From positions 1 to 58,406 of the forward strand of contig CAZENF010000004.1 of assembly GCA_964513645.1 (NCBI GenBank): a stretch of 58,406 nt of DNA, read 5' to 3'. The DNA comes from an uncultured Candidatus Saccharibacteria bacterium (GTDB taxonomy: Bacteria; Patescibacteriota; Minisyncoccia; 2-02-FULL-40-12; GWA2-44-9). Positions 1-58,406 of the stretch are shown piece by piece. The notes below the pieces were generated by a model. It was not told the origin of the DNA. It did no database searches and saw only the letters and a program-made list of their open reading frames with translations. Position 1 is the first letter of the stretch; each line of letters starts with the position of its first letter. The translations under genes and the position numbers were made by a program.

Positions 1-2899
<2,899 letters not shown>

Positions 2900-2979
2900 C
2901 GATCTCTGAGTAATGTCCACGCAATTTCTTATTGTTGATTATTTTAATTTAATTACCCGCTAACATATGAGGCTTCTTT

Positions 2980-3118
2980 TAAGACAATTCTTTCTGCTGC
3001 AATTTTCATATTTGGGCTACGACTTTGATAAAATTTTTCGACATAGCACCGCTATGCCTCAAAATTTTATCTTCGTCTCGCATCAAATCTGAAAATTTCG
3101 CTACGAAAGATTATCTTA
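2980..3118 (-). other. ~139-nt imperfect long hairpin in the 23S 5' leader
   Basis: The left arm TAAGACAATTCTTTCTGCTGCAATTTTCATATTTG...GATAAAATTTTTCGACATAGC mirrors the right arm GCTATGCCTCAAAATTTTATC...CAAATCTGAAAATTTCGCTACGAAAGATTATCTTA. The centre is ACC at 3048-3050. Confidence 0.5.
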
Positions 3119-3164
3119 CAAGAAACCTATTTATAAATTTGCTTGCATTAACTGCCAGTGACTA

Positions 3165-3193
3165 ACTTTATTAAATCAGTCATCGAAAGTCAA
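3165..3193 (-). promoter_or_regulatory. Weak promoter candidate, TTGACT-17-TAAAGT
   Basis: rc 3188-3193 is TTGACT, followed by a 17-nt spacer and rc 3165-3170 TAAAGT. It lies downstream of the terminator and upstream of 23S. Confidence 0.25.
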
Positions 3194-3212
3194 TGTCTTA
3201 AAAATACCCTAT

Positions 3213-3240
3213 AAAAACGAAAAACCGCTCTAAGCGGCTC
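3213..3240 (-). terminator. Intrinsic terminator-like hairpin between map and 23S
   Basis: The minus strand reads GAGCCGCT-TAG-AGCGG followed by TTTTTCGTTTTT. An upstream AAGCGGCT (rc 3306-3313) can pair with the 5' arm instead. Confidence 0.6.
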
Positions 3241-3358
3241 TGATAATACGCCCACCCTCCTAATTTTTTTCAAAATTTAGGCGGGCAAGAAAAATGGACG
3301 TTTTCAGCCGCTTGTTTGTTTGGTTTTTATGTAAGTATTCATTTACTTTTGTAGCTGT

Positions 3359-39871: not shown

Positions 39872-41893
39872 TTACTTGACCAGAAATTTTGCGATAAGGA
39901 GAGCGACAATGTTAGCTACCTTGATCATGGGATTGATAGCAGGTCCGGCGGTGTCCTTGTAAGGATCCCCTACCGTGTCTCCTGTCACTGCTGCTTTATG
40001 GGCGTCGGAACCTTTGCCGCCATAATTACCCTCTTCGATATATTTCTTGGCATTGTCCCAAGCCGCACCACCAGAAGTCATCGAAATAGCTACGAATAAT
40101 CCGGTAATTATCACTCCCACCAAAAGTCCGCCCAACGCCTGTGGTCCGAGCAGAAATCCGATAGCTATCGGGAATACGATCGGAATAAGCGCCGGCAGTA
40201 TCATTTCTTTTATCGCAGCCCGGGTAACAATATCAACCGCGTTGCCGTAATCCGGCTTTTCCATGCCCTGCATAATGCCAGGCATTTCTTTGAACTGTCT
40301 CCTGACCTCATCCACAACCGCCGCACCGGTCCGGGCAACCGCTTCCATCGCCATTGAACCGAAAAGATACGGCATCATTCCGCCCACAAACAATCCTATC
40401 AAAACTCGAGGATCCTGAAGTTCAAAAAATAACTGACTACCCAAGCTTGAAAGTTCTTGAATATAAGCGCTAAACAAAACCATCGCCGCAAGTCCGGCTG
40501 AAGCGATAGCGTAACCTTTGGTCACCGCTTTGGTCGTATTACCAACCGCATCCAAAGCATCGGTCACCTCTCTGACAGAGTCAGGCAAGTGTGACATTTC
40601 AGCGATCCCGCCCGCGTTATCAGTTATCGGACCGAAGGCATCGATGGCAACAACAATTCCGGCCAGTGAAAGCATGCTCATCGTCGCTAAAGCAATTCCA
40701 TAAAGACCGATGACATAAAAAGCAAGATAAATACCCAGACAAATGACAACAATCGGCAAAGCAGTGGCCTGCATCGAGACGGCCAAACCGGCAATAATAT
40801 TTGTGCCATGGCCGGTGGTAGAAGCTTTGGCGATAGTCTGGACCGGACGGAATTTTTTAGAAGTATAAAAATCAGTTATCAGAACCATTAGCGCGGTTAC
40901 ACCGATACCGATCATCATCGCCCAGAAAACATCCATCCGGTTAACTAAGCCGTTAGATAATTTATCGAGGTCACGGATATAGGTGAGCTTGTTTACCATG
41001 TAATAGAAAATGCCGGCCAGAACAACGGCTGTCACGGCCAGACCTTTATAAAGAGCGTTCATTATTCCGCCCATAATACCCTCGCCCAGACGAACAAACA
41101 AAGAACCGATTATCGAAGCGACCACGGCCGAAGCGCCGATTATCAAAGGCAAAATGGTATAGCCCGGTTCGGAAGGAATAAGTAAACTGCCGAGCAGCAT
41201 AACAGAAACAGCAGAAACAACATAAGTTTCAAAAAGATCGGCCGCCATACCCGCATCATCACCAACTTCATCCCCAACCAAATCAGCAATGACTGCGGGA
41301 TTTCTCGGATCATCTTCAGGAATTCCGGCTTCAATCTTACCAACAAGATCCGCTCCGACATCGGCACCCTTGGTGAAAATTCCACCGCCCAAACGGGCAA
41401 AAACAGAAATAAGAGAAGAACCAAAACCCAAACCAATGAGGGCTTTGACATCTTTGGTTACCCAGTAGAAGAATGTGACCGAGATGAGGGCGAGACCGAC
41501 GACGAAGAAACCTGTCACCGCGCCGCCTTTATAAGCCAGGCCAAAAGCTTCAGCGAGACCTTTTTTAGCTTCCTCGGCAACTCGGACGTTCGCCCGAACC
41601 GCAACCATCATTCCGACATAACCGGCTGCAGCTGAAGCGATCGCACCCAATAAAAATCCAATGGCAATGGTTTTGCCAAGCCCGACAAACAATATTGCCG
41701 CAACCACAATACCAACGGCAAAAACGGTCGTGTTCTGACGTTTAAGATATGCTTCGGCGCCTTCCTGTATCGCCTTCTGTATCGACTGCATTTTTTCATC
41801 GCCGGTCGATTTATTTAATATCTGCCAGATCAGGAAAGCTCCGTAGGCAAGTGATGCCACGCCCGCTCCGATCGGCAACCAGAGAATATTCAT
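39872..41893 (-). CDS. hppA: Membrane-bound proton/sodium-translocating pyrophosphatase
   Basis: [20 protein letters not shown] and [19 protein letters not shown] motifs. Start placed at MNILW (ATG 41893). The ORF-track start at 41908 lies inside repeat copy 3. Confidence 0.93.
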
Positions 41894-42010
41894 CCCGTAC
41901 GAACTCATATGCTACGCATATTATGGTCAAACGTTTGACAATAATATAACCAGCGATGAGCTAAATTAATATTATTTTTGCAAACCCGTCAGGGTGAGTT
42001 CGTACGGGAT
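41892..42010. repeat. TIR hairpin element, copy 3 (119 nt)
   Basis: Arms are ATCCCGTACGAACT and AGTTCGTACGGGAT. The interior contains GGTCAAACGTTTGACA. Confidence 0.8.
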
Positions 42011-43227: not shown

Positions 43228-43467
43228 CTATTTTTTATTATTTTCGGAGTTTAAATATTCCGAAACAAGCTGAGATAGTTTTTCGTGATGTTCCTTCTGG
43301 CTTTTAATTGTTGTAGCCATTTCATCTAAACGCTTATGTAGTGCCAAGTAATCATTGTTACCATTCTGCATATGCCGGCGGGATTTAAGCATCAGATAAA
43401 TATTGATGCCGAGCATGCTCAAAACCGCCAAACTAACCAATGATATTAGAACATAAAAAGGATTCAT
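43228..43467 (-). CDS. Small membrane protein (79 aa)
   Basis: One N-terminal TM helix. It lies 2 nt upstream of rmuC. Confidence 0.6.
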   Translation of the reverse strand: MNPFYVLISLVSLAVLSMLGINIYLMLKSRRHMQNGNNDYLALHKRLDEMATTIKSQKEHHEKLSQLVSEYLNSENNKK

Positions 43468-43577
43468 CCCGTACGAAGTAGCCCTTGCAGGGTCCGAAGG
43501 TCAAATGATTGACATTCATATCCGGGCAAGAACCCCATTATTATCCCGACTGAAGTTTTTACTACTTCGTACGGGAT
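43466..43577. repeat. TIR hairpin element, copy 4 (112 nt)
   Basis: Arms are ATCCCGTACGAAGT and ACTTCGTACGGGAT. There is an extra internal TIR-like ATCCCGACTGAAGT at 43543-43556, and the interior contains GGTCAAATGATTGACA. Confidence 0.85.
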
Positions 43578-43594
43578 TTACTTCCATTAGAGTA

Positions 43595-43623
43595 AATCTA
43601 TCATTAAAAAAACATGTTTTCAA
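43595..43623 (-). promoter_or_regulatory. Promoter candidate TTGAAA-17-TAGATT just upstream of copy 4
   Basis: rc 43618-43623 is TTGAAA and rc 43595-43600 is TAGATT. Confidence 0.45.
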
Positions 43624-43626
43624 TTA

Positions 43627-43648
43627 AAAACGGCTTATGCCGTTTTTT
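43627..43648. terminator. Terminator after the tRNA locus
   Basis: AAAAACGGCTTATGCCGTTTTT. Confidence 0.7.
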
Positions 43649-43654
43649 AATTTG

Positions 43655-43924
43655 TGGACCCTACTGAGCTCGAACCGGTTACCTCCACATTGTCCCGATA
43701 AATCATGATGGGCCGCAAGTGGACCGTAGGAGACTCGAACTCCTGACCTCCTCATTGCAAATGAGGCGCTCTACCAACTGAGCTAACGGCCCATCATGAT
43801 TTATCAAGGATCCTCGACTTCATTACCCTAATTTTAAATTGTAAGTCGGGACAAATGTGGCGCTCCTCGCCCGACTGAACAATGTCAGTCGTTCGGGCGG
43901 GTACCAACTAAGCTAAGAGCCACC
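43655..43924 (-). other. Outer tRNA-Ala-like shell, disrupted or intron-like, enclosing tRNA-Ala
   Basis: rc 43902-43924 corresponds to tRNA positions 1-21. Next is a 36-nt hairpin (43866-43901). Then GAGC-G-CCACA-TTTG (43852-43865) corresponds to positions 22-35. A 159-nt insert follows (43693-43851). Finally CAATGTGGAGGTAACCGGTTCGAGCTCAGTAGGGTCCA (43655-43692) corresponds to positions 36-73. Confidence 0.55.
43720..43792 (-). tRNA. tRNA-Ala (UGC)
   Basis: The rc reads GGGCCGT-TA-GCTC-AGTTGGTA-GAGC-G-CCTCA-TTTGCAA-TGAGG-AGGTC-AGGAG-TTCGAGT-CTCCT-ACGGTCC-A. The G3:U70 pair is present. Confidence 0.9.
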
Positions 43925-44004
43925 AGAATTATGGAACCCCTTCATTTTATTCTTATTTTCTGTTATATTTTACCACAGATTTTTAACATTAGAAAGAGGC
44001 TCGA

Positions 44005-44358
44005 ATGATAACGGTGACCGAGAAAGCGGCTGAAAACATACGTGAAATAATGAAAAATGAAGACAAAGAACCCGAAAAAGTTCACTTGCGAATATTTGTA
44101 CAGGGTGGCGGATGTTCCGGTTTTCAATATGGATTAATGATTGATGAAAATGGCAAGAATGCTGCAGACCAAGAATTTGAATCGACGGGTATCCGATTAC
44201 TTGTTGATCCTATCAGTATCCGTTATGTCGACGGAGCAGAAATTTATTTTAACGAAACTCACAACGGGATTGCGATTAAAAACCCCAATGCCACTTCGAC
44301 CTGCGGCTGCGGACAATCTTTCAACAATGATGATCCGCCAAAAGATGACTGTCACTGA
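44005..44358 (+). CDS. IscA/ErpA-type Fe-S cluster insertion protein, copy 1
   Basis: MITVTEKAAENI...GGGCSGFQY...STCGCGQSF, with SD AAGAGG upstream. Confidence 0.88.
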   Translation: MITVTEKAAENIREIMKNEDKEPEKVHLRIFVQGGGCSGFQYGLMIDENGKNAADQEFESTGIRLLVDPISIRYVDGAEIYFNETHNGIAIKNPNATSTCGCGQSFNNDDPPKDDCH

Positions 44359-57738: not shown

Positions 57739-57974
57739 AAGTTTCTCAACTTTATATAGCTTCCCAGTATTGCCTTTTGACAGAAATTTTTATTCGAGCT
57801 GTCATAGAATTCCGATTTAGCCTTCGGATCAGGCATCAGAATTAATTCCGATATCGACTTCATTTTTTTGAAAGTGTTTAGAGTATAGACGTGAAAAAGT
57901 AGAAAATACTTCTTCCCGTTTTTCGCCTCCACACTTTAAATCCTTTCGTGCATCCAAGAAAAATCTTGAATAGA

Positions 57975-58406
57975 AAGGAGGTGATCCAAGAGCAGCTTCC
58001 GCTACCCTTGCCTTGTTACGACTTAGTTCCTGTCATCGAGCTTACCGTGTCCCTACATATAAAATAGGTCTTCAGGTATTCCCGACTCCCTTAACTTGAC
58101 GGGCAGTGAGTCCAAAATTCGAGAACGTATTCACCGCTGCGTTCTGATCAGCGATTACTAGCAATTCCGGCTTCAAGAAGGCAAGTTGCAGCCTTCTATC
58201 CGAACTGAGGGTGCTTTTGATGGGATTAGCTCCACCTCGCGGTTTGGCAACCCATTGTGACACCCATTGTATCATGTGTGTAGCCCAGGACATCAAAGGG
58301 CCACGCTGACTTGACGTCATCCCCACCTTCCTCCTTCTTACGAAGGCAGTCTCGTCTGACACGTATAACAGACGATAGGGGTTGCGCTCGTTAATCCACT
58401 TAAGGA
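57975..58406 (-). rRNA. rrs: 16S rRNA, 3' ~430 nt; the 5' part runs off the window end
   Basis: The rc ends ...AAGTCGTAACAAGGCAAGGGTAGCGGAAGCTGCTCTTGGATCACCTCCTTT. Also present are CGGTGAATACGTTC and the GGGGATGACGTCAAGTCAGC block. Confidence 0.95.

Follow-up and report, generated by a model that had tools for sequence, protein, structure and literature searches.

The subject of this analysis is a nested pair of transfer RNA (tRNA) genes in a stretch of bacterial DNA of 58,406 nucleotides (nt), the whole of which is referred to as the window. On the minus strand, between positions 43655 and 43922, a complete tRNA-Ala(UGC) gene lies within the anticodon loop of a second, split tRNA-Ala(UGC) gene, and this nested arrangement is confirmed. 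We consider it probable (at about 0.7) that the insert containing the inner gene is a copy of a selfish two-hairpin DNA element that invades tRNA genes while carrying a replacement tRNA, in which case the outer gene would be a relic of the invaded one. The anatomy of the locus, its recurrence, the cognate nature of the cargo, the state of the inner (intact) and outer (decaying) copies, and the association with GIY-YIG genes are all evident from the sequences compared. An earlier note on this DNA knew of no bacterial tRNA nested in the anticodon loop of another, and full-text literature searches of a limited collection brought up neither nested bacterial tRNA genes nor a two-hairpin element of this kind.

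The inner gene is called by ARAGORN at 43719–43792 and by Rfam at 43720–43792 (tRNA, 72.5 bits, E = 6e-14), both on the minus strand, and is one of three tRNAs that the two programs find in the window. Its acceptor, anticodon and T stem pairs are all standard and the alanine identity pair G3:U70 is present; it is intact, as the earlier note held, and presumed functional. It is contained in a 159-nt insert (43693–43851, minus strand) that starts with TCCCGA, ends with TCGGGA, and interrupts the second tRNA-Ala(UGC) gene at the exact boundary of nucleotides 35 and 36. Excision of the insert gives back the loop TTTGCAA, again as had been described. The flanks are tRNA-Ala-like and in the proper order. 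A repeat search aligns them to the inner gene with 72% identity over 39 nt (43654–43692 against 43719–43757), 85% over 20 nt and 93% over 14 nt. After removal of the 159-nt insert and of a 36-nt hairpin, the outer sequence matches the inner tRNA in 61 of 76 columns (z = 12 against shuffles, with none of the random 75-mers from the window near this value), and ARAGORN calls the spliced sequence as tRNA-Ala(UGC), which bears out the relationship that the earlier note proposed.

Read along the minus strand, the relic begins with positions 1–21 (43902–43922, TGGCTCT-TA-GCTT-AGTTGGTA, 85% identical to the inner D-arm region), followed by the 36-nt D-loop hairpin (43866–43901, stem core CCCGA/TCGGG), which folds at -10.8 kcal/mol (z = -3.5), in keeping with its first description. 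Positions 22–35 (43852–43865, GAGC-G-CCACA-TTTG, 93% identity over 14 nt) lead up to the insertion point after G35, and positions 36–73 (43655–43692, CAA-TGTGG-AGGTA-ACCGG-TTCGAGC-TCAGT-AGGGTCC-A, 72% identity over 39 nt) resume behind the insert. A terminator-like hairpin with a T run (43626–43647) is located directly 3' of the relic 3' half; it was called on the plus strand, but its stem is symmetric and a T run also follows on the minus strand. The outer acceptor arms had been reported as unpaired, which is a register error of two bases. In the ARAGORN register the outer gene starts at 43922, two bases later than in the earlier one, and TGGCTCT/AGGGTCC forms 6 of 7 pairs, including G3:U70, with a T-C mismatch at 1:72. 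The outer T stem has 4 of 5 pairs and one mismatch. The outer anticodon stem CCACA/TGTGG keeps all five pairs, as claimed before, and differs from the inner CCTCA/TGAGG by a compensated change at pair 29:41. With two stem mismatches and the D-loop insert, the outer copy of the window is, to judge by its stems, only lightly damaged.

The element that occupies the insert has a framework consisting of TCCCGA, hairpin 1, TCGAGGATCCTCGA, TAA, hairpin 2, TTA and TCGGGA, which is its own reverse complement and hence dyad-symmetric. The window copy, on the minus strand, comprises the left end TCCCGA (43846–43851), a hexamer found behind the 5' tRNA half in nearly every related locus; a 32-nt hairpin 1 (GACTT...AAGTC, 43816–43847) seen in the family-wide pairing and in the DNA fold of this copy; the central motif TCGAGGATCCTTGA with TAA (43801–43817), which has one mismatch to the family consensus TCGAGGATCCTCGATAA and is the sole such site in the window; the arms of hairpin 2, GATAAATCATGATGGGCCG (43787–43805) and CGGCCCATCATGATTTATC (43697–43715), which enclose the cargo tRNA (43720–43792); and the right end TCGGGA (43693–43698), corresponding to the TCGG(G/A)A that stands directly 5' of the 3' tRNA half in all related loci. 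The arms of hairpin 2 form a perfect inverted repeat of 19 bp, in which the last six bases of the 5' arm are the first six of the inner tRNA. The earlier note had recognised this leader-trailer helix and its sharing of the tRNA 5' bases, but gave its length as 18 bp and the shared bases as five. It had also proposed GGATCCT (43807–43813) as a cryptic partner of the 3' acceptor strand, a sequence that instead belongs to the conserved palindrome TCGAGGATCCTCGA of the family.

Folding of the window insert is far more stable than that of shuffled sequences (z = -8). The two halves of the central motif pair with the ends of the element, the first with TCCCGA and the second with TCGGGA, so that the element consists of two abutting hairpins with similar feet, joined at GGATCC. 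Each foot follows the scheme TCC(N)CGA...TCG(N)GGA, and the two abut between GGA and TCC. At the junction with the outer gene lies a symmetric 4x3 internal loop (UUUG/CAA), beyond which the strands form a 6-bp helix. Both hairpins are maintained across the family. Each of the 31 distinct family sequences has a hairpin 1 that closes from the ends, with a mean of 7.9 Watson-Crick pairs compared with 1.3 in shuffles. For hairpin 2, 97.5% of the cells are paired (33–46% in slid controls), the covariation score is 0.70 against 0.145 for shuffles, and all nine variable pairs change on both sides.

Longer copies contain, in the loop of hairpin 1, an open reading frame (ORF) of 81–83 codons that encodes a GIY-YIG catalytic domain and nothing else (PF01541, E = 1e-12 to 8e-18). 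The loci that were fetched hold 27 such ORFs with the central motif within 120 nt downstream, and in these autonomous relatives the GIY-YIG gene is the sole ORF found. The window copy has both ends, the central motif TCGAGGATYCTCGATAA (one mismatch) between the hairpins and a complete cognate tRNA; its hairpin 1 lacks the ORF, and because no GIY-YIG-like ORF is present anywhere in the 58-kb window, the copy is non-autonomous. A different association is seen at L140 (minus strand, about 1440–2080), where a complete tRNA-Ala(GGC) and a terminator precede a free-standing GIY-YIG gene, which is followed by a 12-nt anticodon-arm fragment, a cargo-less element and a duplicate tRNA 3' half.

The arrangement recurs widely. 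A pattern derived from the outer 3' half, a sequence type also found in ordinary tRNA-Ala genes of 14 Patescibacteria, retrieves 14 Patescibacteria loci, and in five of these (L085, L087, L090, L093 and L094) one tRNA-Ala is nested in another. Four of the five share the insert ends TCCCGA and TCGGGA and the motif TCGAGGATYCTCGATAA; L093 has a different insert. A 22-base family pattern that combines the motif and the right end, for which 1.6e-6 chance matches are expected in the window, identifies the window locus and, in species-representative genomes, 24 further loci with a complete tRNA inside, almost all labelled Patescibacteria. Their cargo is Ala-UGC (11 loci), Ala-CGC (5), Cys-GCA (5), Ser-GGA, Ile-GAU and Lys-CUU (one each). 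Metagenomes add 45 distinct nested tRNAs, about nine of which duplicate the genome set (leaving some 35 additional contigs), and one new kind, Thr-CGU. At every one of these genome loci and metagenome nests, TCGGGA is followed by the 3' part of a tRNA that matches the inner one in kind, and where the contig is long enough, the 5' part stops exactly at the insertion point and TCCCGA begins. The cargo is therefore always of the same kind as the split gene, across seven tRNA kinds. Insertion takes place after G35 in Ala genes, after G34 in Cys and Ser genes, and after position 26 in the Ile gene; the left flank of the target mostly ends in G (TTTG, TTCG, CTG, TTG, ACG, CTGG), with exceptions, and the copies in tRNA genes of the candidate phyla radiation (CPR) show no target duplication. 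That the insert is a copy of a widespread, presumably mobile element accounts for its TCCCGA/TCGGGA ends, its GGATCC motif and the helix that clamps the inner tRNA.

A first motif pattern of 16 bases proved too short, most of its 120 matches being due to chance and the real ones confined to Patescibacteria and Bacteroidales. The longer pattern also matches in Chitinophaga, Terriglobia, Lachnospiraceae and others, but without the hairpins, and these matches were treated as chance. Viral contigs gave two matches, neither with a tRNA inside, and no family in Rfam 15 matches the insert, even at E = 10. In the tRNA-Lys(CUU) gene of L242 (1940–2130) and L324, split at 26/27, the element is reversed relative to the tRNA, while the carried tRNA-Lys still points in the direction of the split gene; the D loop of this split gene also holds two hairpin inserts.

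The inner and outer copies were compared at 16 loci over the acceptor, anticodon and T stems, amounting to 272 pairs per set. All 272 pairs are standard in the inner tRNAs, but only about 241 in the outer copies, 6 of which are perfect whereas 10 have from one to many defects; of 14 spliced outer copies, ARAGORN no longer recognises 4. Such a gradient would be expected if the outer copies are under relaxed selection. The relics also collect further insertions. Cargo-less copies of the same element are found in the D or T loops of relics at L144, L218, L227, L255 and L274 (in the D loops at L218 and L227), and GC-rich hairpins like that of the window at L087, L174, L246 and L257 (in the D loop at L087, L246 and L257). 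At L137 (6990–7685) and L218 (minus strand, 2780–3260), tRNA-Ala nests are three levels deep, and the innermost tRNA alone is intact. At L218 both outer levels carry a cargo-less D-loop element, and one 3' half with the right end has apparently been lost. Among the readings offered in the earlier note, that of a gene colonised by insertions and rescued by a nested copy is thus the one we favour, given inner tRNAs intact at every locus, decaying outer copies and relics that gain insertions.

Differences between inner and outer copies are usually compensated, as at pair 29:41 in the window, at 6:67 and the first T-stem pair in L094, and at four acceptor pairs in L234. Compensated differences imply that both copies were once working tRNAs with separate histories, and hence that the element brought the inner copy with it. 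In lineage, the outer copy of L237 matches the inner copy of L085, which suggests a serial replacement in which the cargo becomes the resident gene and may later itself be invaded.

The D-loop hairpin of the window relic may be a single-hairpin relative of the element. No second copy of it is present in the window at up to three mismatches, and CCCG...CGGG hairpins are weakly in excess. A 10-mer within it, CCCGACTGAA (43870–43879), occurs identically at 43545–43554 in the leader of the rmuC operon, where it forms part of a small TCCCG...CGGGA hairpin; the shared 10-mer may likewise be a trace of single-hairpin relatives.

According to the mechanism that we propose, insertion of the element between nucleotides 35 and 36 would inactivate the resident tRNA-Ala(UGC), and the tRNA-Ala(UGC) in the loop of hairpin 2 would take over. 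Because the cargo replaces the lost function, insertion would be tolerated and the element would be hard to lose. Autonomous copies would be mobilised by their own single-domain GIY-YIG nuclease of 81 residues, and the window copy would depend on such an enzyme provided in trans. By analogy with the Ssn nucleases, the enzyme would recognise the hairpin feet in single-stranded DNA. It would make the initiating cut for homology-dependent repair or recombination, in which the conserved tRNA halves may serve as arms for spread between genomes, and this route would account for the missing target-site duplication. No consensus sigma-70 promoter was found within the insert, and transcription of the inner tRNA would proceed by read-through from the promoter of the relic to the terminator at 43626–43647. 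The direction of the cargo in L242 and L324, which follows the split gene and not the element, fits a need for transcription from the promoter of the old gene. The inner tRNA would then be released by normal end-processing, with hairpin 2 as a leader-trailer helix, and the relic would decay and gather more hairpin insertions, including the 36-nt hairpin in its D loop.

Several considerations weigh against this reading. GIY-YIG enzymes hydrolyse DNA and cannot by themselves join strands, and the proposed mechanism leaves both the joining of strands and the capture of a tRNA in hairpin 2 unexplained. The comparison of syntenic loci that the earlier note had advised was run on rmuC neighbourhoods, and gave no relative with the locus and hence no empty-site/filled-site pair among close relatives. 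None of 80 rmuC loci in species-representative genomes (at most 67% identity) has a tRNA-Ala(UGC) upstream, and the closest RmuC sequences among 5.8 billion proteins (67–68% identical) reside in a different gene neighbourhood without the locus; no record matches the protein of the window exactly. Inner and outer copies do not clearly become more or less alike with distance from the junction, so that a direct sign of co-conversion is missing. The six perfect outer copies, and the retention of 6 of 7 acceptor pairs and G3:U70 in the outer copy of the window, are as a spliced intron would predict. Finally, the dyad symmetry puts the same motifs into the transcript of either strand, and orientation can therefore not exclude a role at the RNA level.

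A stronger variant of the invading element, which we hold to be unlikely, is that the cargo tRNA itself specifies the target, by homology or as a guide for the nuclease, and that the element is a programmable gene-replacing cassette. Targeting by the cargo would explain why cargo and target are cognate across seven kinds and why the cargo follows the orientation of the target when the element is reversed. The nuclease in this variant is a tiny GIY-YIG enzyme without a DNA-binding domain, and if the cargo acted as its guide, a changed cargo would redirect the element to another tRNA gene.

Among the rival explanations, a domesticated element deserves the first mention, although we regard it as doubtful. 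Hairpin 2 and the relic halves would here constitute a processing or regulatory scaffold for the release of tRNA-Ala, and the element would no longer be selfish or mobile at this locus. The 19-bp perfect leader-trailer helix does compete with the acceptor stem, the window copy has no nuclease gene, and the unit is placed between a promoter-poor upstream region and a terminator. However, the sequence of the helix varies freely among loci while its pairing is kept, as expected for a structural requirement of the element, there is no indication of regulation and nothing that would demand such a role for this ORF-less copy, and the decay of relics here and elsewhere suggests neglect over function. 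The RNase III-type scaffold envisaged in the earlier note may describe the role of hairpin 2 in the transcript, but it leaves the origin of the arrangement unexplained.

Splicing of the insert at the RNA level, by which one transcript would yield both an inner and an outer tRNA-Ala through a hypothetical bacterial cut-and-ligate pathway, is improbable on the present evidence. The perfect restoration of the 7-nt anticodon loop in 16 of 16 loci would suit it, as would the pairing of the insert ends with each other beside the outer anticodon stem, where the TCCCGA/TCGGGA helix would keep the exon ends together. Several of the outer copies form flawless cloverleaves, and that of the window, once spliced, passes as a tRNA in ARAGORN. 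An intron, however, has no need of a second copy of the host tRNA, which is present in every copy located within a live tRNA gene, and it does not predict stem defects in 10 of 16 outer copies, the loss of recognisable tRNA structure in 4 of 14, or the accumulation of D-loop and T-loop insertions in relics. Rfam gives no match to a group I intron (Intron_gpI) or other ribozyme at E up to 10 in 43300–44100, and no Intron_gpI match at the gathering threshold in L085 and L144. The symmetric 4x3 junction is not the archaeal-type bulge-helix-bulge (two 3-nt bulges and a 4-bp helix), and the rRNAs of the window are bacterial. The same element is furthermore present in multiple copies in intergenic DNA of Bacteroidales. 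The intron-like reading of the earlier note is therefore not supported.

The possibility that an integrase-type island or prophage remnant in tRNA-Ala was later deleted down to its attachment sites has very little to commend it. It is common for integrative elements to use tRNA genes as targets and to duplicate a portion of them, and a diverged copy of the 3' half is indeed found downstream here. Against this, the neighbours are rmuC, a gene for a protein of 79 residues and hesB/iscA-type genes, with no integrase; the layout is 5' half, complete gene and 3' half, and not a complete gene with a 3' repeat behind it; the insert, at 159 nt, is short and contains the conserved two-hairpin framework; and the autonomous relatives carry a GIY-YIG gene only. 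A local rearrangement or duplication of the tRNA-Ala gene without any mobile element, or the assembly chimera that the earlier note had named, is effectively refuted by recurrence, since, even though the inner and outer 3' halves are identical in L276 and L301 (both from metagenomes), as local duplication would leave them, the same framework and exact insertion point are seen in about 60 independent assemblies of many lineages and seven tRNA kinds, the usual compensated inner/outer substitutions imply separate functional genes, and a chimera cannot generate conserved, covarying hairpins.

Outside tRNA genes, several metagenome genomes of Bacteroidales hold the element in many intergenic copies, each about 165 nt long and without cargo. 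It thus appears that the basic element is a small mobile repeat of a general kind and that the form with a tRNA is a specialisation of the CPR. At L178, L228, L248 and L239, all from Bacteroidales, cargo-less copies have short tandem arrays of a locus-specific 7-nt unit on both sides (TAATTTG, TTCGGAG, TAGTTGG and TTATTGA), as if 7-bp target duplications had been multiplied by rounds of insertion and excision. In another Bacteroidales locus, L240 (about 2290–2540), the element follows the stop codon of a gene and precedes a diverged second copy, of about 50 nt, of the 3' end of that gene, coding for ...VEG(K/R)LVK.EK.VFE*. The combination of replacement and relic may here extend to a protein-coding gene.

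As for the genomic setting, the host is a member of the Patescibacteria (CPR), and the RmuC of the window is closest to proteins from metagenome genomes of Paceibacteria/Parcubacteria type. A 23S ribosomal RNA (rRNA) gene is situated at one end of the window and the 3' part of a 16S gene (57974–58406) at the other, 55 kb apart, and neither tRNA-Ile(GAU) nor tRNA-Ala(UGC), which are on opposite strands, belongs to an rRNA operon. The 23S gene (1–2899) uses 2899 nt for model positions 1–2621, with an unclassified insertion of about 280 nt for which no group I match is reported. Two related leaders of about 115 nt (41892–42010 and 43466–43577, minus strand) precede a pyrophosphatase gene and the operon of a small ORF and rmuC. 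In each, AATCCCGTACGAA, about 100 nt upstream, pairs with TTCGTACGGGATGAAT, which contains the start codon, and a palindrome, TGTCAAACGTTTGACC or TGTCAATCATTTGACC, occupies the centre. The leaders have no match in Rfam, and could represent a shared operator or a switch in the 5' untranslated region that hides the start codon.

If the proposed reading is true, CPR tRNA genes are repeatedly replaced by horizontally imported copies, and nested fossils record the order of invasion. Annotation pipelines would then meet tRNA halves, hairpin-laden pseudo-tRNAs and nested genes that are now ignored or miscalled. The biology of single-domain GIY-YIG enzymes would become testable on a clear and frequent target. 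As with the related Ssn enzymes, the small size of the nuclease (81 residues) and its defined hairpin sites would make it a candidate for use as a site-specific DNA tool. Harmless entry into essential tRNA genes is known in two ways, by self-splicing introns and by integrases that rebuild the 3' end of the gene. The element would represent a third, in which a whole spare gene is carried inside.

Islands and prophages with tyrosine integrases target tRNA genes and restore them with a 3' part that they carry. The present element resembles them in gaining host-safe entry into an essential tRNA gene by bringing a replacement sequence, but it carries a whole tRNA, nested in the anticodon loop, keeps both old halves, measures only 0.16–0.45 kb and has no integrase. 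Group I introns also insert into anticodon loops of bacterial tRNAs, and some bacterial group I introns carry homing endonuclease genes (PMC3984707). The position of insertion and a likely spread by homology-dependent repair are common to both, whereas the insert here has no ribozyme core, devotes 73 of its 159 nt to a tRNA, and would be neutral by virtue of the spare gene and not of self-splicing. In a survey of rRNA insertions in the CPR, the same host group, every GIY-YIG protein was found in an insert other than a group I or group II intron, mostly at the tips or bases of stem-loops (PMC11270868). This survey covers rRNA only and does not mention tRNA; its GIY-YIG inserts may belong to the same element family. 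With IS200/IS605 elements and the REP/BIME-RAYT systems there are similarities in the subterminal or paired hairpins, the absence of target duplication (for the CPR copies) and the short non-autonomous derivatives. Unlike these systems, the element has a dyad-symmetric framework and a GIY-YIG hydrolase in place of an HUH/Y1 transposase; no Y1 HUH transposase (TnpA) is present in the autonomous relatives.

The closest parallel is provided by the Ssn nucleases, single-domain GIY-YIG enzymes of about 94 residues (94 in Neisseria) that bind single-stranded DNA at a hairpin repeat and cleave a few bases upstream of it (Chenal et al. 2025, PMC11893778). Hairpins of this kind flank their genes, a layout that the authors remark is insertion-sequence-like. 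Common to both systems are a tiny single-domain GIY-YIG protein (81–83 residues here), a hairpin-flanked gene and scattered hairpin copies without an ORF, and the Ssn hairpin repeat NTS (CGTCATTCCCGCGMAVGCGGGAATCYRG), with its stem core TCCCG...CGGGA, resembles the hairpin feet described above. The main text of PMC11893778 makes no mention of tRNA, and describes no tRNA targeting, cargo, nesting or two-hairpin unit. A search of the window with the published SRM pattern gave no match (0, against a mean of 0.13 in shuffled sequences), and the nearest solved structures in the PDB to the ORF of the element are UPF0213 proteins. In the CDD, cd10448 is the family of the Ssn nucleases and cd10456 that of UPF0213. 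The Ssn link is a lead by analogy and not a claim of membership. Taken as a whole, the element joins two known kinds, namely tRNA-targeting elements that restore their target and hairpin repeats that are associated with GIY-YIG genes.

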